Assembly (NCBI GenBank): GCA_038087875.1
Contig: CM075994.1
Location: 2,110,001-2,174,000, forward strand
DNA from: Malacoraja senta
Taxonomy: Eukaryota
Reading direction: 5' to 3'
DNA: 64,000 bases
Part shown: piece by piece, positions 3,114 through 62,720 of the stretch
Layout: every line of letters begins with the position of its first letter
Numbering within the stretch: position 1 is the first letter of the stretch
Position numbers and translations under genes: made by a program
Notes under the pieces: generated by a model
The model's database searches: none
What the model was told of the DNA's origin: nothing
Seen by the model: only the letters and a program-made list of their open reading frames with translations

Positions 3114-4449
3114 GGGGAGCGAGGTGGGGAGGAAGGAAGGCCAGCACTCCTCGGACAACATCACATCGCCCCGCTGCCTTGATCGTTGGGAACTCCTCGC
3201 CACCGCCTCCCTCCTCCGCCAGCCAACTGCAAGGTGCGTGGCCGGGCGGTGCAGCTCAGAGATCCTATAGCTATAGGATCTTTGGTGCAGCTGCTTCTGA
3301 CGCAACGTTTCGTGTCGGCGGCTGTTGTGCGGGGCAAAGATACTAGGTGCGGGGTGAGGAAGGGTCGGAGCGAATGACAGGTCCCGCACAGCGGCAACGA
3401 CAGTGGGTTTACAAGTTGAGGCCCTTATTACGGGGGGCGGGAGGAGGAGATGGAGCCGCTGTCGCAGCTGCCGCTGTTTGGGATCCGACCCTTCCTCACC
3501 CCGCACCTAGTATCTTTGCCCCGCACGACAGCCGTCACCCCCGACACGAAACGTCACGTTCCTTTTCTCCAGAGATGCTGCCTGACCCGCGGAGTTACTC
3601 CAGTTTTTTGTGTCTATCTTCGGTACAAACCAGTATGTGGTTGCCAGGCCGGGCAAAATGACTCGGTGTTTTGGTTGCCCGGCGGCGCTTTGGGTGGTCA
3701 GTGGCACCCGGGCAACCGCTAATTTCGAGCCCTGCATTCGCTTTCTTCACTGCCTGCTGTACCTGCATACTTATTTTCATTGACTGATGAACAAGGACCC
3801 CCCAGATCCCGTTGTACTTCCCCTTTTCCCAACTTGACACCATTTAGATAATAATCTGCCTTTCTGTTTTTGCTACCAAAGTGGATAACCTCATATTTAT
3901 TCACATAAAACTGCATCTGCCATGCATCTACCCACTCACCCAACCTGTCCAAGTCACCCTGCATTCTCATAGCATCCTCCTCACAGTTCACACTGCCACC
4001 CAGCTTTGTGTCATCTGCAAAGTTGCTAATGTTACTTTGAATCCCTTCATCTAAACTATTGAAGTATATTGTAAATAGCTGCGGTCCCAGCACCGAGCCT
4101 TGCGATACCCCACTAGTCACTGCCTGCCATTCTGAAAGGGACCCGTTAATCCCTACTCTTTGTTTCCTGTCTGCCAACCAATTTTCTATCCATGTCAGCA
4201 TTCTACCCCCAATACCACGTGTTCTAATTTTGCCCACTTATCTCCTATGTGGGACCTTATCAAATGCTTTCTGAAAGTCCAGGTACACTACATCCACTGG
4301 CTCTCCCTTGTCCATTTTCCTAGTTACATCTCAAAAAATTCCAGAAGATTAGTCAAGCATGATTTCCCCTTCGTAAATCCATGCTGACTCAGACCGATCC
4401 TGTTACTGCTATCCAAATGTGCCGCTATTTCATCTTTTATGATTGACTC
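1338..4449 (-). mobile_element. CR1 LINE 3' part (RT C-terminus and 3' UTR), split by a DNA transposon at 2000-3734
   Basis: ORF 3719-4237 with SGVSQGSVLGP and FADDTKL; ATTGTCTATT tail at about 1340. Confidence 0.9.
2000..3734. mobile_element. non-autonomous DNA transposon with CAGGGCTC/GAGCCCTG termini and 5-bp TSD CATTC
   Basis: interrupts the CR1 sequence ATGC-CATTC-GCTTTC; homologous copies at 22864-25440 and 35450-35786. Confidence 0.85.
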
Positions 4450-7875: not shown

Positions 7876-10800
7876 ACACACACACACGAACACACACACA
7901 CGAACACACACACGCGAACACACACACGCGAACACACACACACGCGAACACACACACCCGCGAACACACACACGCGCGAACACACACACGCGCGAACACA
8001 CACACGCGCGAACACACACACGCGCGAACACACACACGCGCGAACACACACACGCGCGAACACACACGCGCGAACACACACACGCGCGAACACACACACG
8101 CACGAACACACACACGCACGAACACACACACGCACGAACACACACACACACGAACACACACACACACGAACACACTCACGAACACACACACGAACACACA
8201 CACACACGAACACACACACACACGAACACACACACACACGAACACACACACACACGAGCACACACACACGAGAACACACACACACGAGCACACACACACG
8301 AGAACACACACACACGAGAACACACACACACGAGAACACACACACACGAGAACACACACACACGAGAACACACACACACGAGAACACACACACACGAGAA
8401 CACACACACACGAGAACACACACACGCACACGAACACACACACGCACACGAACACACACACGCACACGAACACACACACGCACACGAACACACACACGCA
8501 CACGAACACACACACGCACACGAGAACACACACACGCACACGAGAACACACACACGCACACGAGAACACACACACGCACACGAGAACACACACACGCACA
8601 CGAGAACACACACACGCACACGAGAACACACACACGCACACGAGAACACACACGCACACGAGAACACACACGCACACGAGAACACACACGCACACGAGAA
8701 CACACACACTCACACGAGAACACACACACACACACGAGAACACACACACACACACGAGAACACACACACACACACGAGAACACACACACACACACGAGAA
8801 CACACACACACACACGAGAACACACACACACACACGAGAACACACACACACACACGAGAACACACACACACACACGAGAACACACACACACACACGAGAA
8901 CACACACACACACACGAGAACACACACACACACACGAGAACACACACACACACACGAGAACACACACACACACACGAGAACACACACACACACACGAGAA
9001 CACACACACACACACGAGAACACACACACACACACGAGAACACACACACACACACGAGAACACACACACACACACGAGAACACACACACACACACGAGAA
9101 CACACACACACACACACACGAGAACACACACACACACACACACGAGAACACACACACACACACACGAGAACACACACACACACACACACGAGAACACACA
9201 CACACACACACACGAGAACACACACACACACACACACGAGAACACACACACACACACACGAGAACACACACACACACACACGAGAACACACACACACACA
9301 CACGAGAACACACACACACACGAGAACACACGCACACACACACACGAGAACACACGCACACACACACACGAGAACACACGCACACACACACACGAGAACA
9401 CACGCACACACACACACGAGAACACACGCACACACACACACGAGAACACACGCACACACACACACGAGAACACACACACACACACACACGAGAACACACA
9501 CACACACACACACGAGAACACACACACACACACACACACGAGAACACACACACACACACACACACACGAGAACACACACACACACACACACACACACGAG
9601 AACACACACACACACACACACACACGAGAACACACACACACACACACACACACGAGAACACACACACACACACACACACACGAGAACACACACACACACA
9701 CACACGAGAACACACACACACACACACACGAGAACACACACACACACACACGAGAACACACACACACACACACGAGAACACACACACACACACACGAGAA
9801 CACACACACACACACACGAGAACACACACACACACACACGAGAACACACACACACACGAGAACACACACACACACGAGAACACACACACACACACGAGAA
9901 CACACACACACACACGAGAACACACACACGAGAACACACACACACACACGAGAACACACACACACACACACACGAGAACACACACACACACACACACGAG
10001 AACACACACACACACACACGAGAACACACACACACACACACGAGAACACACACACACGAACACACACACGCGAACACACACACGCGCGAACACACACACG
10101 CGAACACACACACGTGCGAACACACACACCCGCGAACACACACACGCGCGAACACACACACGCGCGAACACACACACGCGCGAACACACACACGCGCGAA
10201 CACACACACGCGCGAACACACACGCGCGAACACACACACGCACGAACACACACACGCACGAACACACACACGCACGAACACACACACGCACGAACACACA
10301 CACGCACGAACACACACACACACGAACACACACACACACGAACACACACACACACGAACACACACACACACGAACACACACACACACGAACACACACACA
10401 CGAGAACACACACGCACGAGAACACACACACACGAGAACACACACGCACGAGAACACACACGCACGAGAACACACACGCACGAGAACACACACGCACGAG
10501 AACACACACGCACGAGAACACACACGCACGAGAACACACACGCACGAGAACACACACGCACGAGAACACACACGCACGAGAACACACACGCACGAGAACA
10601 CACAAACACACACACGCACGAGAACACACACGCACGAGAACACACACGCACGAGAACACACACACGCACACGAGAACACACACACGCACACGAGAACACA
10701 CACACGCACACGAGAACACACACACGCACACGAGAACACACACACGCACACGAGAACACACACACGCACACGAGAACACACACGCACACGAGAACACACA

Positions 10801-13800
10801 CGCACACGAGAACACACACTCACACGAGAACACACACTCACACGAGAACACACACACTCACACGAGAACACACAAACACACACGAGAACACACACACACA
10901 CACGAGAACACACACACACACACGAGAACACACACACACACACGAGAACACACACACACACGAGAACACACACACACACGAGAACACACACACACACACG
11001 AGAACACACACACACACACGAGAACACACACACACACACGAGAACACACACACACACACACGAGAACACACGCACACACACACGAGAACACACGCACACA
11101 CACACGAGAACACACGCACACACACACGAGAACACACGCACACACACACGAGAACACACGCACACACACACGAGAACACACGCACACACACACGAGAACA
11201 CACGCACACACACACACGAGAACACACACACACACGAGAACACACGCACACACACACACGAGAACACACGCACACACACACACGAGAACACACGCACACA
11301 CACACACGAGAACACACGCACACACACACACGAGAACACACGCACACACACACACGAGAACACACGCACACACACACACGAGAACACACGCACACACACA
11401 CACGAGAACACACGCACACACACACACGAGAACACACGCACACACACACACGAGAACACACGCACACACACACACGAGAACACACGCACACACACACACG
11501 AGAACACACGCACACACACACACGAGAACACACGCACACACACACACGAGAACACACGCACACACACACACGAGAACACACGCACACACACACACGAGAA
11601 CACACGCACACACACACACGAGAACACACACACACACACACACGAGAACACACACACACACACACACACGAGAACACACACACACACACACACGAGAACA
11701 CACACACACACACACACACACGAGAACACACACACACACACACACACACACGAGAACACACACACACACACACACACGAGAACACACACACACACACGAG
11801 AACACACACACACACGAGAACACACACACACACACACGAGAACACACACACACACACACGAGAACACACACACACACACACGAGAACACACACACACACA
11901 CACACGAGAACACACACACACACACACGAGAACACACGCACACACACACACGAGAACACACGCACACACACACACGAGAACACACGCACACACACACACG
12001 AGAACACACGCACACACACACACGAGAACACACACACACACACACACACACGAGAACACACACACACACACACACACACGAGAACACACGCACACACACA
12101 CACGAGAACACACACACACACACACACGAGAACACACACACACACACACACACACGAGAACACACACACACACACACGAGAACACACACACACACACGAG
12201 AACACACACACACACACGAGAACACACACACACACACACACGAGAACACACACACACACACACACGAGAACACACACACACACACACGAGAACACACACA
12301 CACACACACGAGAACACACACACACACACACGAGAACACACACACACACACACGAGAACACACACACACACACACACGAACACACACACACACGAGCACA
12401 CACGCACGAGAACACACACGCACGAGAACACACACGCACGAGAACACACACGCACGAGAACACACACGCACGAGAACACACACGCACGAGAACACACACG
12501 CACGAGAACACACACGCACGAGAACACACACACGCACACACGCACACGAGAACACACACACGCACACGAGAACACACACACGCACACGAGAACACACACA
12601 CGCACACGAGAACACACACACGCACACGAGAACACACACACGCACACGAGAACACACACACGCACACGAGAACACACACACGCACACGAGAACACACACG
12701 CACACGAGAACACACACGCACACGAGAACACACACGCACACGAGAACACACACACACACACGAGAACACACACACACACACGAGAACACACACACACACA
12801 CGAGAACACACACACACACACGAGAACACACACACACACACGAGAACACACACACACACACGAGAACACACACACACACACGAGAACACACACACACACG
12901 AGAACACACACACACACACGAGAACACACACACACACACACGAGAACACACACACACACACACGAGAACACACACACACACACACGAGAACACACACACA
13001 CACACACGAGAACACACACACACACACACGAGAACACACACACACACGAGAACGCACACACACACACGAGAACACACGCACACACACACACGAGAACACA
13101 CGCACACACACACGAGAACACACGCACACACACACACGAGAACACACGCACACACACACACGAGAACACACGCACACACACACACGAGAACACACGCACA
13201 CACACACACGAGAACACACGCACACACACACACGAGAACACACGCACACACACACACGAGAACACACGCACACACACACACGAGAACACACGCACACACA
13301 CACACGAGAACACACGCACACACACACACGAGAACACACGCACACACACACACGAGAACACACGCACACACACACACGAGAACACACGCACACACACACA
13401 CGAGAACACACGCACACACACACACGAGAACACACGCACACACACACACGAGAACACACCCACACACACACACGAGAACACACCCACACACACACACGAG
13501 AACACACCCACACACACACACGAGAACACACACACACACACACACGAGAACACACACACACACACACACGAGAACACACACACACACACACACACACGAG
13601 AACACACACACACACACACACACACGAGAACACACACACACACACACACACGAGAACACACACACACACACACGAGAACACACACACACACACACGAGAA
13701 CACACACACACACACACACGAGAACACACACACACACACACACGAGAACACACACACACACACACACGAGAACACACACACACACACACACGAGAACACA

Positions 13801-14876
13801 CACACACACACACACGAGAACACACACACACACACACACGAGAACACACACACACACACACGAGAACACACACACACACACACGAGAACACACACACACA
13901 CACACGAGAACACACACACACACACACGAGAACACACACACACACACACGAGAACACACACACACACGAGAACACACACACACACGAGAACACACACACA
14001 CACACGAGAACACACACACACACACGAGAACACACACACACACACGAGAACACACACACACACACGAGAACACACACACACACACGAGAACACACACACA
14101 CACACGAGAACACACACACACACACACACGAGAACACACACACACACACACACGAGAACACACACACACACACGAGAACACACACACACACACACGAGAA
14201 CACACACACACACACACGAGAACACACACACACACACACACACACACGAGAACACACACACACACGAGAACACACACACACACACGAGAACACACACACA
14301 CACACGAGAACACACACACACACACGAGAACACACACACACACACACACGAGAACACACACACACACACACACGAGAACACACACACACACACACACGAG
14401 AACACACACACACACACACACGAGAACACACACACACACACACACGAGAACACACACACACACACACGAGAACACACACACACACACACGAGAACACACA
14501 CACACACACGAGAACACACACACACACACGAGAACACACCACACACACGAGAACACACACACACACACACGAGAACACACACACACACACGAGAACACAC
14601 ACACACACACGAGAACACACACACACACGAGAACACACACACACACACACACACACACGAGAACACACACACACACACACACACACACGAGAACACACAC
14701 ACACACACACACGAGAACACACACACACACACACACACGAGAAACACACACACACACACACACACGAGAACACACACACACACACACACACACGAGAACA
14801 CACACACACACACACACACACGAGAACACACACACACACACACACACGAGAACACACACACACACACACACACGAG

Positions 14877-14920
<44 letters not shown>

Positions 14921-15287
14921 AACACACACACACACACACACACACGAGAACACACACACACACACACACACGAGGACACACACACACACACACACACGAG
15001 AACACACACACACACACACACACGAGAACACACACACACACACACACACGAGAACAAACACACCACACACACACACGAGAACAAACACACACACACACAC
15101 GAGAACAAACACACACACACACACGAGAACAAACACACACACACACACTCGAGAACAAACACACACACACACACTCGAGAACAAACACACACACACACAC
15201 TCGAACAAACACACACACACACACGAGAACAAACACACACACACACACGAGAACACACACACACACACGAAAACACACACACGAGAA

Positions 15288-15322
<35 letters not shown>

Positions 15323-15326
15323 ACAA

Positions 15327-15359
<33 letters not shown>

Positions 15360-15568
15360 CACACCACACACACACACACACATACACACACACACACACA
15401 CAAGAACACACACACACAAGAACAAACACACACACACACAAGAACAAACACACACACACACACACACACACAAGAACAAACACACACACACACACACACA
15501 CACAAGAACAAACACACACACACACACACACAAGAACAAACACACACACACACACACACACACAAGAA

Positions 15569-15607
<39 letters not shown>

Positions 15608-15640
15608 GAACAAACACACACACAAAACAAGAACAAACAC
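7838..15640. repeat. ~7.8-kb compound (CA)n satellite with GAA/GCGCGAA/GAGAA/AAGAACAAA interruptions, in SERAC1 intron 5
   Basis: directly visible; almost no T on the + strand. Confidence 0.97.
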
Positions 15641-16139
15641 AAATAAAGCCTTACTGTTGATGAAATGCAGTGAATACGCGATAATCCCCAATATTTCCAA
15701 TGTTGATATCTGTCTTGACCATTTTGGGTGTTTTTTACGGGTAAGAAAGTACGCATTACGTGTATTGACAGTGTATGCCGGAAGCTGCCATGTCCTCCAC
15801 ATGGATTGAGCTGCTCCGTGCGTCACACCCTTTGACCCGCTGACCTTGCGTGCAACCCCCCTATAGAAAGAGGGCAATGAATGCACTGTCAAGTAAGGTG
15901 CGTAGAAGACATGTCAATTGGTAGCAAAGTTATGCATTCTTGTAGTCTTACATGGGTGTGACCGCACATAAAAAACATTTTTTTCAGCAAAATGGCACCG
16001 TGTAAAAATACTGATTTCCTCAGCAAAATACTGATTTTCAGGTACTAGAATACTGAAATGCTCTGACAAAACTTGGCAACTCTGGTTTACTCTATATAAG
16101 TGACCATCCTTAGATTGTCACACGTACTATGTTTTACAG

Positions 16140-22863: not shown

Positions 22864-25440
22864 CAGGGCTCTCACTTAACTTATTTTCCCTGTTGCCAGC
22901 CGGGCAACCTGGGCAGCTTTTTAGGTTGCCAAATGACAGTTTAGGTGGTCATTTAAGACGGCTTGCATGACGCGTGCGATAATGTGCTCGGATGAAGTGC
23001 GTAGTTACCAGTTGGAATTATGCTCAATGAAGTATCTCAACTCTTTTTACACAATGCAATTAATGCAATTTCTATTATTTCTTTCCACTTCCAAACAAAA
23101 ATGTGGTTGGATTATTCAGCATATGATCAACGTGTCAATAAATCCTGGACCATGATAACATATATGCTTAACCATGCACACTACAGATTGATGCAAGCAT
23201 GTTTTCTGTGAAGGACCGAAAATTATGACATGGCCATAGCATGGGTCATTATTGCTATTGGTACAGAAACACTCTCGCTTCCCACATAATTTATCCACAA
23301 CAAAATATACAGGTTGCAAGGAATTTTCTAAAGGCATTTAATGATAATAGCAGTTAAAACAGGTACCATCTGACAGGTTAAACATTACACTAACTAACAA
23401 GAGATGGCCAAAGGACATAAATGCAGCAAATGTTCTTTTGGTAATATATTTAAAGGTGTCAAGACGCCACATTATCGGGCATTCAGATTAGATGTATGTG
23501 TTGTGAACAGCAATGAAGATACCCAGTTTGTAAGATTTAAAAAAAATTGTTGATAAACGCTGTTTCCATCATTCCCACTCAGAATTAACGTTAAAATTTC
23601 AACTGAAATATCTCCTGACCAAATTTGTGATGTATATGACTGACTAGAAGTAAAACCTGGATAAATCCAACATATAGTTGTGAATGTTGCTCATTAAATA
23701 ACTATAGTACTGATACTACATATTAAGAGCATTGATTTGCCGTTAAAATGAATTCTGTAATAACGTGTCAACGGTAGCAGTGACAATCGAACACTGCGGC
23801 TTTAATGTTTTACGTGTTCACAATTTAATTAATCCATCTTTATGGATTAAAACAAATAACATTGTGAGTTAAAACACATTTGATTGCATTCCGTTATCAA
23901 ACATAGTCAATGTTCGCTCTGAAGACATTTCAAGCACAATAGGGTCGGGGGGGGGATGTGAAAGTGCGGGATGGATAGATGGCGGTGGGGGGGGGGGGGG
24001 GGTTGAGAAGGCAATCGGTGCGGAATTAATGGATTGAGGCAGGGGAATTAGTGCGTGTTGGTTGGAGTAGGTAAAATTGTGAGGAGAGAGCGCGGGGGAT
24101 GACGGGTTGAATGGGGGGGATCAGTACAGGATGAATGGGGGTAGACAAAAATGCTGGAGAAACTCAGCAGGTGAGGCGGCATCTATGGAGCGAAGGAAAT
24201 GGGCAACGTTTCGGGTCGAGACCCTTCTTCAGACTGATCCCCCCATTCTTCTTGAATGGGGGGCGATCAGTACAGGATGGATGGGGGGGGATCAGCGCAG
24301 GACGAATGGGCGGATCAGTACAGGATGAATGGGGGGGGACAGTACAGTGTGGATCGGATGGTCTGTGCAGGATGAATGGGTGGATCACTACAGGATGAAT
24401 GGAGGGATAAGTACAGGGTGGATGGGGGGATCACTACAGGATGAATGAGGGAATCAGTACAGGATGAAGGGAATCATTAAAAGATGAATGGGAAGATCAG
24501 TACAGGATGGATGGGGGGAGCAGTGCATGATGGATGGGGGGAGCAGTGCATGATGGATGGGGGGAGCAGTGCAGGATGAAGGGGGGGGGCAGTGCAGGAT
24601 GGATGGGAGGGGGGGGTCAGTACAGATGAATTGGGGGACCAGTGTAGGATTGATGGGGAGTGGCAGGAGAATAGATGGAGGGGGGGGGATGTAGATGAAG
24701 AAGGGAGCACACGGGATGTCAGTGAGGACTGAATAGAGGCAGGAATGGGGATCAGTGCGGGATGGAGAGGAGGGGTCTCAGGATAAGGGGGGGTGGAGGG
24801 AGGCGTACAAGAGAGAGAGAGAGAGAGAAGAAGGGGCAGAGGAGGTGGGAAGGAAGGTCAGTGCTCCTCGGACAACACCGGCATCATCCCTGCCTTGACC
24901 GTCCCTGTCTACCGCCAAGTGCCGCCACTAAAGGGGGAGGCAGTTGGGAACTCCTCGCCACCGCCTCCCCTCCTCCGCCAACCAACAGGAAGGTGCGGGG
25001 CCGAGTGGTGCAGGTGCTTCAGACGGCGGAAGGCCTCTCCTTCCTCCCTCCTCCCGGCCTCGCCGTGCGGGAGGGTTTGTGTTTGAAAGCGCCGTTGGCA
25101 GAGTGGCAGGCAGCGGCCGCTATCATGGTGGGCGGGTTGCAGGAGGAGGAGGAGATGGAGCCGCTGCTGCTGCTGCTGTGCGGGGCCCGTCATTCGCTCC
25201 GACCCTCCGTCACAGCACACTTAGCATCTTTCCCACGCATTACAGCCGTCGCCAACACAAAACGTCACGTTCCTTTTCTCCAGAGATGCTGCGTGACCCG
25301 CTGAGTTACTCCAGTTTTTTGTGTCTATCTTCGATATAAACCAGTATCTGCAGTGCCAAGCCGGGCAAAATGACTCGGCGTTTAGGTTGCCCGGCGGCAC
25401 TTTGGGTGGTCATTGGCACCGGGGCAACCGTTAATTTCTG
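22864..25440. mobile_element. second, longer copy of the CAGGGCTC DNA transposon, containing a G-rich minisatellite (about 24100-24680)
   Basis: colinear homology to 2000-3734; right TIR partly deleted; TSD TTTCA/CTTCA. Confidence 0.85.
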
Positions 25441-58487: not shown

Positions 58488-61400
58488 CTCTTTTTTCTAT
58501 TACAAATCTCAAATTGTGGAGTACAGAGGCAAATAAATAAATGATGGGTCTTTGTCAAACATGGAGGGCACTAAATATTTGACGAGAAAACTGACAATGA
58601 TTATATATCATAGTGGTTTATCTTATCGTGGAATGGCACAACAAAGAAACCCATTTGGCCCATTGTATCTGAGCTGTTGTGTTCCAGAACAACTTGCCAG
58701 TTCCATATATTTATTCACGCCTTAACTCTGCACTCCCACACTTGATCCAAATGCAATAATGTAACAGTGTACAATTATAAATTAAAAGCACAAGATTGTA
58801 AATCTGCCTTTCCATACCATGTTCAATGATTGTGGAGTTGCTGCAAGCTGTGTATTCTGTGATTTGAGATAGTCTGGAGCTGCATGTTTTGGGCCAGTAG
58901 CATAGGTCTGCACACTGCAGTTGGGCAGTCAAGTAGGCATTCAGGTAGAACCAGGACTCTTGCTCATAGAAAGGAAATTATGAAAAGATTTACGAGGATG
59001 GTGACAGGACTCAAGGACCTGAGCTATAGGGAGTGGTTAAGCAGGCCAGGTTATTTCCTTGGAATGCAGGAGGATGAGGGGTGATCATATACAAGTGTGC
59101 AAAATCATGATGAATAGATCTGGTAGACGCACAGAGTCACTTGCCCAGAGTAGAGGGATCGAGAACCAGAGGACATAGGTTAAGGTGAAGGAGGGATAGA
59201 TTTAATAGGAACCTGATGGGTAACTGTCACGCAAAGGATGGTAGGTGTATGGAATGAGCTGCCGGAGGAGGTAGTTGAGGCAGGCACTATCACAATTTGC
59301 AACATTTAGACAGGTACCTGGACAGAATAGGGTCAGAGGATGGGATTAGTATAGATGGGACATGTTGGTCGGTGTGGGCAAGTTGGGCCACTGCATCTGT
59401 TTCCATGCTCTATCATATTTTAAAGTGGCATAAGCAACTGCAAATTTTGGAATGTGGCAAAAAAAAGGTGAGCTGCTGCTGGAACTCAGTGGTTCAGGCA
59501 GTTCACTACATGTGATGGCAAGAAACGAATTAGAAGCATCTTTTTAAAAAAGACAGAGCTGGGTGGAGGGTGATAGGTGGGAACAGTACAGAAGAGTATA
59601 CCCGTAGCACCATTCATATATGGATTATCAAATTTCTTATTATAACATAAATTGCTACATCTTTGTGAAAATGCTAATTTAATCCCTGTAGATTGATAGG
59701 AGAAAATGCAATTGATTTGTGCTACCCTACTGCCAGAGTAAGAGACAGCAGATTGACATGGGTTAATTCATCAATACAAATTGTAACTAATTCTGATTTA
59801 TATCCTATGACCCCACACGAGCCATTTGCAGTCTGAAAGATTTTATGTCAGTAAGATTTTCTTTGTCATGCTATTGGTGCGTTATTAATGTGCACCTTGT
59901 TTAAATATATTCCAAAATTCAGGAAGATTAACGAGAGTAATATTTTCCATTTGTAGTTTAAATACATCTCTAATCTAAGGATCATCAATAAATGACATAA
60001 ATGTCTAACTAAATGATTAACCCTCTGAATGATTCAGTGTGGACTATTCACCCGAGACTTCAAAGAACTGCATCTGCATTTGGTATTAAGTTCTCTTTAT
60101 GTTTGCCAATTAGCAAACCGATCGTGAGATATTTTCCATGTGCAGATTACAAAGGTAAAAATCAGAGGGAGCATGTTGAGCATGCAACATTAATTGAATT
60201 GCTTGAAAGAAACAGGCCCTTAGGCCTACCGAGTCCACGTCAACCATTGATCACCCGTCTTTGGAATTTGGGAGGAAACCAAATCTGGAGGAAACCTACG
60301 CAGCCACAGGAAGAACATGCAAACTCCACATAGAGGGCAAATGAGGTCCGGGTTGGCTGCAGCTTTACCAGATGCGCCACCTCTTACCCTTGTTTTCCCT
60401 AAAAGAAACATTGCATGATAAAACATACTGCTGAAAATAAATATCCTGGCCTACACTGGTATCCCATCCGAGATAGACAAGCTCACAGGCAATTATGCCA
60501 AGCAGAATGAGTTTGTGCTACCACACACATTACCGTTTGGACGGTGCTCAGCAAAGACTTCCAACACAAGCAGTTGGCATGTAACCACAAAAATATCCCC
60601 ACATAGGCATGTGAGATTTCTTCTGACAGCTGCTGTGATGTATGGGAGCAGAGTTACCAGCTGCTCCGAGACAAGGGATACTACTGACAACGTCGACTAT
60701 AAGACGCAGGAGCAGAATTACGCAATTCGGTCCATCAAGTCCACTCTATCACTCAATTGTGGCTGATCTATATTTCCCTCTCAAACCTATTCTCCTGCCT
60801 TCTTGCTGAAACCTTTGACCCTCTTACCAACATGACTGAGGACATTTCTCAGAAACCAAAGGAGTGATGCTGGAAACAATGCTATATCATTGATTGAGGT
60901 GTACAAAACTATGAGGGACAGAGACAGTAGGAAACATCCCCATCAGCCAGGTCTCAATCTGGGTTTAAGGTAAGGGAGAACAAGTTTAGAGAAGATTTAT
61001 TTCATCCAGATGGTTAGAATCTGAAGAACGATTAGCTCCAACCACAACCCCTTTACTATGATTCACCCCCTCCAATATCTTTATCAACATGTTCCCAATG
61101 TTGGGGGAGTCCAGAATCAGGGGCCACAGTTTAAGAATAAGGAGTAAGCCATTTAGAACGGAGACGAGGACACACTTTTTCTCACAGAGTGGTGAGTCTG
61201 TGGAATTCTCTGCCTCAGAGGGCAGTGGAGGCAGGTTCTCTGGATGCTTTCAAGAGACAGCTAGATAAGTAGCGGAGTCAGGGGATATGGGGAGAAGGCA
61301 GGAACGGGGTGCTGATTCGGGATGATCAGCCATGATCACATTGAATGGCGGTGCTGGCTCGAAGGGCCGAATGGCCTACTCCTGCACCTATTGTCTATTG

Positions 61401-61669
61401 TAACCAAAGATACTAGAGGAGCTCCTCTAGTATCTTTGATTGTAACTCAGGTACCTTTACTCCCATGTTGAATCTTTACTCTTTTGTTGTATTTTAACCC
61501 CCCCCCCCCCCCTCCTCCCTCCTCCATCCTTGTAAATGTATATCTCCTCCTGTAACTTTCTTCCCTCCTTACCCTTATCTTCTTCCCCATATCCCACCGC
61601 CCCCTGATCTTTCTCCCCATCGTGAAGACCCTCAAGTCACCGCTTTAGCCCTCTAGTATCTTTGCTTTC

Positions 61670-62720
61670 GCCTACAACAGGCGCGCCGCGGCGGGAGCGC
61701 GCACGCCGCTGCCCCACGCGAGACTCGGCCGCTGCGACAGGACAGCGGACGGGAGATGCACCGGGACGGGGGTGCAGATCATCTTTGGTGCAGATTCCTC
61801 CACACCGCTTGTTCTCGCCTATCTCCCATTGAATGACCGGGACGCTTGGTTGCAAGGAGTTCACGCGTGGAACCTTCCGCTCGCGCCGGCGGGTCCAACG
61901 TCCGCGATCCCGCAGCGCGTTTGCGAGCAAAGCGCTGCACTCCCTCGAGCGTCACCGGGCCTAACGGCCGCGCGGTTGCTGGAATAGTCGGAGTTGGCGC
62001 GCCGGTAGGTCCGGCCGTTGCTAGGAGAGGGAAGTCCTGCCTCCCTCTCGCGGACGCCGCGTTTAACAGCCGCGCTTGATGCGCGTGACGCGACAGCGCC
62101 CGCCCGCTTCGTCAGCCCGCGCGTGCGCGGAAGCGCATTCCGGATTCCGGCCGCCTTCAATGGGCAGCGGCTTCGGGTCGGGGTGAAAACGGTCGTCCTG
62201 TTGCTGCTTTGCCGTCTCTTCCCCACCCGCCCCGTCACTCCCGTGTCCGTGCCGCGGGGGCTACAGGCGCGCTGTCTCCGTCACTTCCCAGACCAGGGCT
62301 CCCATGCTGCTGCTCCTGCTCCTATTACTCCAGGCCGCCTGAGAGGCAAAGCCCGCCCCGGCGTTTGATGAGCCGCCGCCCCGCAGCCAGGCACCCGGGC
62401 CGCGGGCTTAGCGGCATGTTCGCGGCGGTGGAGCAAGGCCCGGTGGTGTGCAGCGACTCCAACATCCTCTGCCTGTCGTGGAAAGGCCGGGTGCCCAAGA
62501 GTGAGAAGGAAAAGCCGGTGTGCCGCCGGCGCTGCTACGAGGAAGGCTGGCTGGCCACCGGCAACGGCAGGGGGGTGGTCGGCGTGACTTTCACCGCCAG
62601 CCGCTGCAGGAGGGAGCGCGGCAACCCGCAAAGGATCAACTTCAACTTGCGAGGCCACAACAGCGAGGTGAGCCCTTCATCAGAGCCGCATGCCCCGAGG
62701 CCTCGGCCCGGGTGGGGGGC
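61670..62720 (+). promoter_or_regulatory. TULP4: TULP4 CpG island / promoter / 5' UTR
   Basis: dense CpG; ETS-like CGGAAG and TTCCGG, NRF1-like GCGCGTGCGC and a TGACG half-site around 62080-62150. Confidence 0.75.
62416..62667 (+). CDS. TULP4: TULP4 (tubby-like protein 4) first coding exon, MFAAVEQGPVVCSDSNILCLSWKGRVPKSEKEKPVCRRRCYEEGWLATGNGRGVVGVTFT...QRINFNLRGHNSE
   Basis: 252 nt ending GAG|GTGAGC; matches the TULP4 N-terminal WD40 region; remainder of the gene is outside the window. Confidence 0.97.

Follow-up and report, generated by a model that had tools for sequence, protein, structure and literature searches.

The window analysed here, a 64-kb stretch of Malacoraja senta DNA, contains three short inserts, (a), (b) and (c), upstream of TULP4. 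Such inserts, each between 8-bp direct repeats (TSDs), had been put forward in the original prediction, and all three were present with their flanking 8-mers at the coordinates given earlier (Table 1). The 34-bp palindrome of (a) was perfect and both of its flanking 8-mers were identical, as were those of (c); the 8-mers of (b) differed by one mismatch. The gene was recognised by its first coding exon, the best named match of which was skate TULP4a, with 87–96% to other vertebrate TULP4. A Pfam search with the 84-aa exon gave no match and an Atlas search gave WD40-like leads only, and the TULP4 identity rests on the protein match to skate TULP4a. RNA evidence was looked for at the TULP4 locus and none was listed. 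A CpG island started at ~ 61650, with (b) and (c) inside its 5′ edge and (a) ~ 200 bp outside. The CTATTGT tail of a high-copy repeat, which we take to be a CR1-like LINE, overlapped the left TSD of (a).

Table 1. Positions of footprints and neighbouring features in the 64-kb window.
Feature	Position	Strand	Description
Footprint, sister end type (fourth)	3249..3292	.	28-nt insert 3257-3284, identical 8-mers, inside a multi-copy repeat
Footprint (fifth)	3327..3526	.	12-nt single arm, 8-bp TSD; mirror copies 3335-3346 and 3507-3518
High-copy repeat, 3′ end with CTATTGT tail	61200..61401	+	depth in millions in all four runs
Footprint (a)	61397..61446	.	TSD 61397-61404, 34-nt palindromic insert 61405-61438, TSD 61439-61446
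Footprint (b)	61643..61672	.	TSD 61643-61650, 14-nt single arm 61651-61664, TSD 61665-61672
CpG island	61650..62700	.	GC 0.64-0.71, CpG o/e 0.7-1.4 (150-bp bins)
Footprint (c)	61772..61795	.	TSD 61772-61779, 8-nt insert 61780-61787, TSD 61788-61795
TULP4 first coding exon	62416..62667	+	100% over 84 aa to skate TULP4a

A detector of inserts that are flanked by 8-bp repeats and end in the terminal 7-mer returned five footprints in the window, with a mirrored pair taken as one: the three at TULP4 and two near 3.3–3.5 kb. Applied to 179.6 kb of evenly spaced genome stretches, the same detector met 38 terminal 7-mers, none with an exact 8-bp repeat and three with a one-mismatch, low-complexity repeat. 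Because none of the 38 background 7-mers had an exact repeat, the inserts are not a product of chance. A control at random positions (12.6% exact repeats) was discarded, as it was swamped by the satellite at 8–16 kb of the window. The DNA at 8001–16000, ~ 8 kb of a simple tandem repeat almost without T, had an AT skew near 1 and a strongly negative GC skew.

The flanks of the fourth footprint recurred at L126, L131, L135, L139 and L140, and an empty paralogous site was located at position 25033 of the window. The fifth footprint consisted of mirror-image copies, one in each arm of an inverted-repeat element (3290–3560). The 12-nt footprint and its TSD are found in both arms of this element, so the excision came first and one arm was later copied from the other.

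The footprint family and its parent element

The terminal 15-mer had 2,564 matches in the genome, compared with 25 matches of the reversed sequence used as a control. Two-armed short inserts, with each arm of at least 11 nt, occurred at 524 places, sister-type short inserts at 372 and the exact 34-mer of (a) at 99, these numbers being places and not events. Many footprints ride within other repeats, and raw match counts were therefore rejected as event counts; the 150 fetched sites represented 115 flank contexts, and 15 copies of the 34-mer only 10. Exact flanking repeats were present at 80 of the 115 independent sites, all of them 8 bp long, as predicted, and at 103 of the 115 when up to one mismatch was allowed. 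The target site was palindromic, with T at position 2 and A at position 7 in 76% (n = 72). Empty, ungapped paralogous sites with a single 8-mer were found for 22 of 136 events among the examined loci.

A CpG-island-like stretch lay within 500 bp of 44 of 92 single-copy sites, compared with 22 of 178 background windows (p = 5e-10), although many of these sites are CpG-rich repeats and the comparison was made without TSS annotation. For these two reasons we do not claim the promoter preference that had been proposed; what stands is a bias to CpG-rich targets. We also observed five different inserts (L166, L220, L222, L225 and L228) at one position of a short repeat, with a GTTTAAAC-like TSD. The high-copy repeat, many paralogues of which are empty, has a hotspot for insertion at this position.

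Searching with the GTP-binding domain of P transposases (PF21788) yielded 150 scored transposase matches among 312 candidates. Eight of the 20 stretches around PF21788 matches contained complete elements of 5.0–7.9 kb, with the footprint termini at both ends and a perfect 8-bp TSD; their pairwise identity was 95.9–98.8%. Non-autonomous copies with TSDs measured 595 and 1,732 bp. The transposase copies, several of them with open frames of 769–790 aa, were 87 to 99% identical to that of L079. THAP, HTH, RNase H N and C, and the GTP-binding domain scored above the cut-off, and five of five frames matched the expected families; in L079, THAP is on a separate upstream exon and the main frames comprise HTH, RNase H and the GTP-binding domain. 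The only PDB match was the Drosophila P transposase (6p5a, E 1.8e-43). In the alignment to 6p5a, with the residue list taken from PMC7776569, D230, D303 and E531 were all identical (3/3), and so were seven of the eight GTP-contact residues, the exception being K400, replaced by R; GTP dependence of cleavage and strand transfer is predicted from these conserved residues.

The nearest database proteins were 70–80% identical to the transposase, and the named matches included two from Leucoraja erinacea (83% over 13% of the query). These two, P0074 and P0075, are annotated as TRIM55-like and combine a THAP domain, the 83%-identical piece and a B-box, a fusion that is possibly an exon capture or a gene-model artefact. 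A gene model from Merluccius polli (P0055) contains a stretch that matches 27% of the transposase at 61% identity, and is, judging from its sequence, a related P family in a teleost.

The complete elements thus carry what the original prediction had anticipated, namely long copies with these TIRs that encode a THAP-domain transposase of the P/THAP9 superfamily. No hAT transposase was found between the TIRs and the Pfam matches of the main frames were P-type only, so the concern that the termini might belong to a hAT or other non-P enzyme did not materialise. The TIR itself measures about 32 bp rather than the 17 nt first assumed. With the transposase domains, the TIRs enclosing the transposase gene and the 8-bp TSD, the parent is to be classed, on protein, TIR and TSD, as a P-superfamily member. 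The element copies were 96–99% identical and had long open frames; the family would have been mobile recently, and is only possibly so at present.

The autonomous elements L076–L094 (e.g., L079 at 2205–2317 and 9034–9079) contained footprints of their own family in the subterminal regions, in one of which a 5-bp unit was expanded to two or three copies. These footprints are self-insertion and excision recorded in the parent. At L086 7861–7873, another 12-nt arm stands immediately between the element end and the flank, forming a nested or extended terminus, and how end variants arise may show there.

Footprint arms and end variants

The 34-mer of (a) had been described as exactly 17 + 17. The real terminus has a C at base 18, so the 34-mer can equally be 18 + 18 with an overlap on GC, and the earlier description is one of two equal readings. 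Footprint (a) likely consists of two 18-nt arms that share a 2-nt GC overlap. We inspected every one of the 35 same-type inserts that exceeded 34 nt: nine were blunt 18 + 18 36-mers, six were 18 + 17 35-mers, and one more differed from the 18 + 18 36-mer by a CpG-type change, with no 37- or 38-mer among the 35. The longer inserts contained re-copied pieces of the outer TIR. Five of the nine 36-mers (L222, L223 and L287–L289), with perfect TSDs, had A at base 17 in one or both arms and C at base 18. Since these 36-mers keep C at base 18 beside A at base 17, this C came from the element and was not copied from the partner end.

The latter result bears on a fixed 17-nt stagger as in Drosophila, in which repair polymerases would synthesise base 18 onward with the partner end as template. 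Such a stagger agrees with the 17 + 17 parse of the 34-mer at its 99 places, and with a 25-mer joined at base 17 that was found at 19 places. Nevertheless, it is largely refuted by the blunt 18 + 18 36-mers, some with a partner A at base 17 that is unable to template C, and by the 20-nt arms of sister ends with their 38- and 40-mers; we regard it as very unlikely. A at base 19 had 37 matches in the genome, 19 of which were places of a recurrent 25-mer. The partner arm or CpG decay can account for each of these cases, but the 37 would also allow an occasional 19-nt overhang.

Footprints of the sister ends included GC-overlap joins of 36–38 nt, blunt 20 + 18 joins (38 nt; L278–L280) and 20 + 20 joins (40 nt; L281–L283), the blunt ones with 0–1 mismatch in the TSD. 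Arms passing the 20-nt boundary (22–37 nt) made up 4 of the first 100 among 187 matches. The table of arm lengths peaked at 18 and 20, and is illustrative rather than an unbiased distribution, being made from chosen patterns and first-listed places. Hence the proposed cap near 17–19 nt agrees with our data insofar as the arms are capped, but the cap lies at 18 nt on this end type and at 20 nt on the sisters. The conserved 17-nt cut does not agree with these caps, from which the footprints suggest longer staggers.

A longer overhang might be masked by trimming back to the GC microhomology. A single stagger of 20 nt or more at all ends, trimmed back to the self-complementary GC and thereby mimicking a sequence-set cut, would suit the observations that GC-microhomology joins are the commonest long products and that a few arms overshoot. 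We consider it quite unlikely, as blunt joins free of microhomology stop exactly at 18 on 18-type ends, with the 37- and 38-mers missing from the 35, and as none of the 37 arms with A at base 19 reaches base 21, even though an AG overlap with the partner would be available at bases 20–21.

Identical inserts recur at many places, as would be the case if they were minimal MITEs transposed as 8–40-bp units; internal deletions from aborted gap repair are the related option, and the rare long arms of L290 and L291 fit the latter. However, the inserts cover a continuous size range with asymmetric and mixed arms, their recurrence is partly passive, as seen from the few flank contexts of the 34-mer, the inner TIR is absent, and a sharp cap is not expected from aborted repair. 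An origin of either kind is hardly credible. In the inserts L216, L220, L225 and L228, and in others of 39–56 nt, the joint contained templated insertions in which pieces of the TIR were copied again. Templated insertions of this sort are expected of polymerase-theta-type end joining.

The arms stop where an inner segment of constant sequence and 14 bp begins. In sister ends, 19 or 20 bases precede the same inner 14-mer, and 16 of 16 end variants combined an outer part of 18, 19 or 20 nt with the 14-bp inner part and repeated bases 3–7 just after the proposed nick position; these proportions are pattern-selected, because the pattern demanded both the 14-bp inner part and the 5-mer repeat. A 595-bp element between TSDs had one 18-type and one 20-type end (L009, L014), and the transposases behind a 20-type left end were 97% identical to the 18-type one (L083, L085). 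The hybrid-ended elements, the hybrid footprints and the 97% identical enzymes behind both end types lead us to attribute both distances to one enzyme. Separate transposase subfamilies for the 18-, 19- and 20-type ends, every one cutting at a fixed stagger of its own, would be in line with the 87 to 99% range of identity to L079 and with a CCTATAG end type that has no assigned enzyme. The 18 + 20 footprints and hybrid-ended elements, which imply both distances in one excision, together with the near-identical enzymes, make such subfamilies exceedingly improbable.

Proposed cleavage and comparison with known P systems

We propose, with a probability of roughly 0.8, that the inserts are end-joined donor sites left by excision of a skate P-superfamily transposon, the inner nick of which would be set before the 14-bp inner segment. 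In this scheme, the transposase would cut one strand at the terminus and the opposite strand immediately ahead of the constant 14-bp segment of the TIR, so that each flank would keep an overhang of 18, 19 or 20 nt, according to the end variant. The HTH, by binding the inner 14 bp, would position the inner nick, which would not be counted from the terminus; with the nick fixed relative to this segment, length variants of the outer part translate into the three overhang lengths. Repair would proceed by blunt joining (36, 38 and 40 nt), by GC microhomology (34, 36 and 38 nt) or after trimming (8–33 nt). The strand cuts are thus deduced from repaired products, in contrast to the directly observed parent elements, P transposase, TSDs, outer-TIR footprints with their 18/20 boundary, and empty sites.

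According to the excerpt of a review (PMC7776569), the Drosophila transposase makes one cut at the 3′ end and another 17 bp into the 31-bp TIR, which leaves a 14-bp inner part, and its HTH touches the TIR in the inner half. The same excerpt describes the transferred strand as looping out, disordered from −14 to −18, and then pairing with the 5′ portion of the opposite strand. On this wording we base a prediction for the skate family, in which the 5-mer at bases 3–7, repeated after the inner nick, would enable the looped-out transferred strand to pair again with the cut strand at its 5′ end, the loop absorbing the 0–2 extra bases. The variable outer bases would, by analogy, coincide with the disordered loop of the Drosophila structure. 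The inner 14 bp of the Drosophila TIR is double-stranded after cleavage, and the putative skate counterpart has the same length in the 16 pattern-selected ends. We lean slightly towards the full scheme, i.e., a skate P family with one transposase, 18-, 19- or 20-nt overhangs set by the 14-bp register, a duplicated 5-mer for fold-back, and recent, possibly continuing, mobility. If it is correct, the “17-nt rule” is a loop length and not a ruler, and the skate family is a candidate vertebrate P system able to integrate.

The Drosophila melanogaster P element (6p5a) and the skate family share the domain order, the D/D/E triad, seven of eight GTP contacts, the 8-bp TSD, a TIR of about 31–32 bp with a 14-bp inner part, and a bias to CpG-rich, open-type regions. 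They differ in the outer part, which is 18–20 nt and variable within one family in the skate as compared with a stagger of 17, in the 7.6-kb size of the skate element and its unrelated TIR sequence, and in the skate scars being fixed in the genome and shared between species. Long donor overhangs were shown for Drosophila P, the donor of which keeps two 17-nt 3′ overhangs according to the consulted part of bioRxiv 2022.05.24.493293, and are suggested by the footprints for the skate family. In the portions of the literature consulted for this comparison, a long stagger is given for Drosophila only. What is new relative to Drosophila P is the stagger length and its variability; the P superfamily itself is known.

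Among vertebrate relatives, zebrafish Pdre2/zfTHAP9 is P-like and has TIRs and an 8-bp TSD, as does the skate family. The excerpt of PMC10983969 gives for Pdre2 a 13-bp TIR, which differs from the skate TIR, and about 50 related sequences with one full-length gene, compared with the 150 scored matches in the skate; it contains no stagger length for Pdre2. The same excerpt reports that the zebrafish THAP9 enzyme excised but did not integrate, whereas the skate family offers intact-looking vertebrate P transposases. Domesticated THAP9 of amniotes shares the P-type transposase fold and, in the part of PMC7776569 available, has neither TIRs nor multiple copies; the skate family has both, and the single-copy state typical of domestication was not found. 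A search by title found no paper about P elements of skates or about P footprints in vertebrate genomes, and one with TIR words returned unrelated papers only; Repbase or Dfam may already catalogue the family. The hAT transposons have 8-bp TSDs and short TIRs in common with the skate elements, which contain no hAT protein. Footprints of hAT elements are generally made of flank bases, not TIR bases.

According to the excerpt of PMC7776569, it is not known how the strands of the P element are cleaved, nor in which order, and the end-variant scars bear on this step. As read from the footprints, the scars would indicate a long stagger in a vertebrate germline that shifts with natural end variants. 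They also represent a large natural set of germline end-joining products.

Ages of the three TULP4 scars

The scars can serve as presence/absence markers among skates. In the orthologue comparison, the run X10 lacked exactly 16 nt from 61771, corresponding to insert (c) plus one TSD, whereas X3, X7, X12, X15 and X17 span (c) with no gap among the indels listed. This was the only clean orthologous empty site, seen for (c) in one of the six other organisms compared. X10 may have kept the ancestral state, or it may have lost the sequence later, which could have occurred by deletion between the 8-mers. For (b), X7, X10, X15 and X17 read C at 61647, which makes its two 8-mers identical. X12 was tried as an orthologous empty site for (b) and was not counted, its deletion being 29 nt and not 22; the empty sites looked for among orthologues were thus obtained for (c) and, as absence, for (a), with none that is clean for (b).

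The orthologous contigs of X3 and X12 start aligning at 61439, exactly at the right TSD of (a), and are preceded by 34 and 19 unfitting letters, respectively, from which we conclude that (a) is absent from both. Footprints (b) and (c) are common to several related organisms. Local hopping had been listed among the habits of P elements in the original prediction. As (b) and (c) are old and shared and (a) is younger, the scars differ in age, pointing to a reused hotspot rather than one local-hopping burst.
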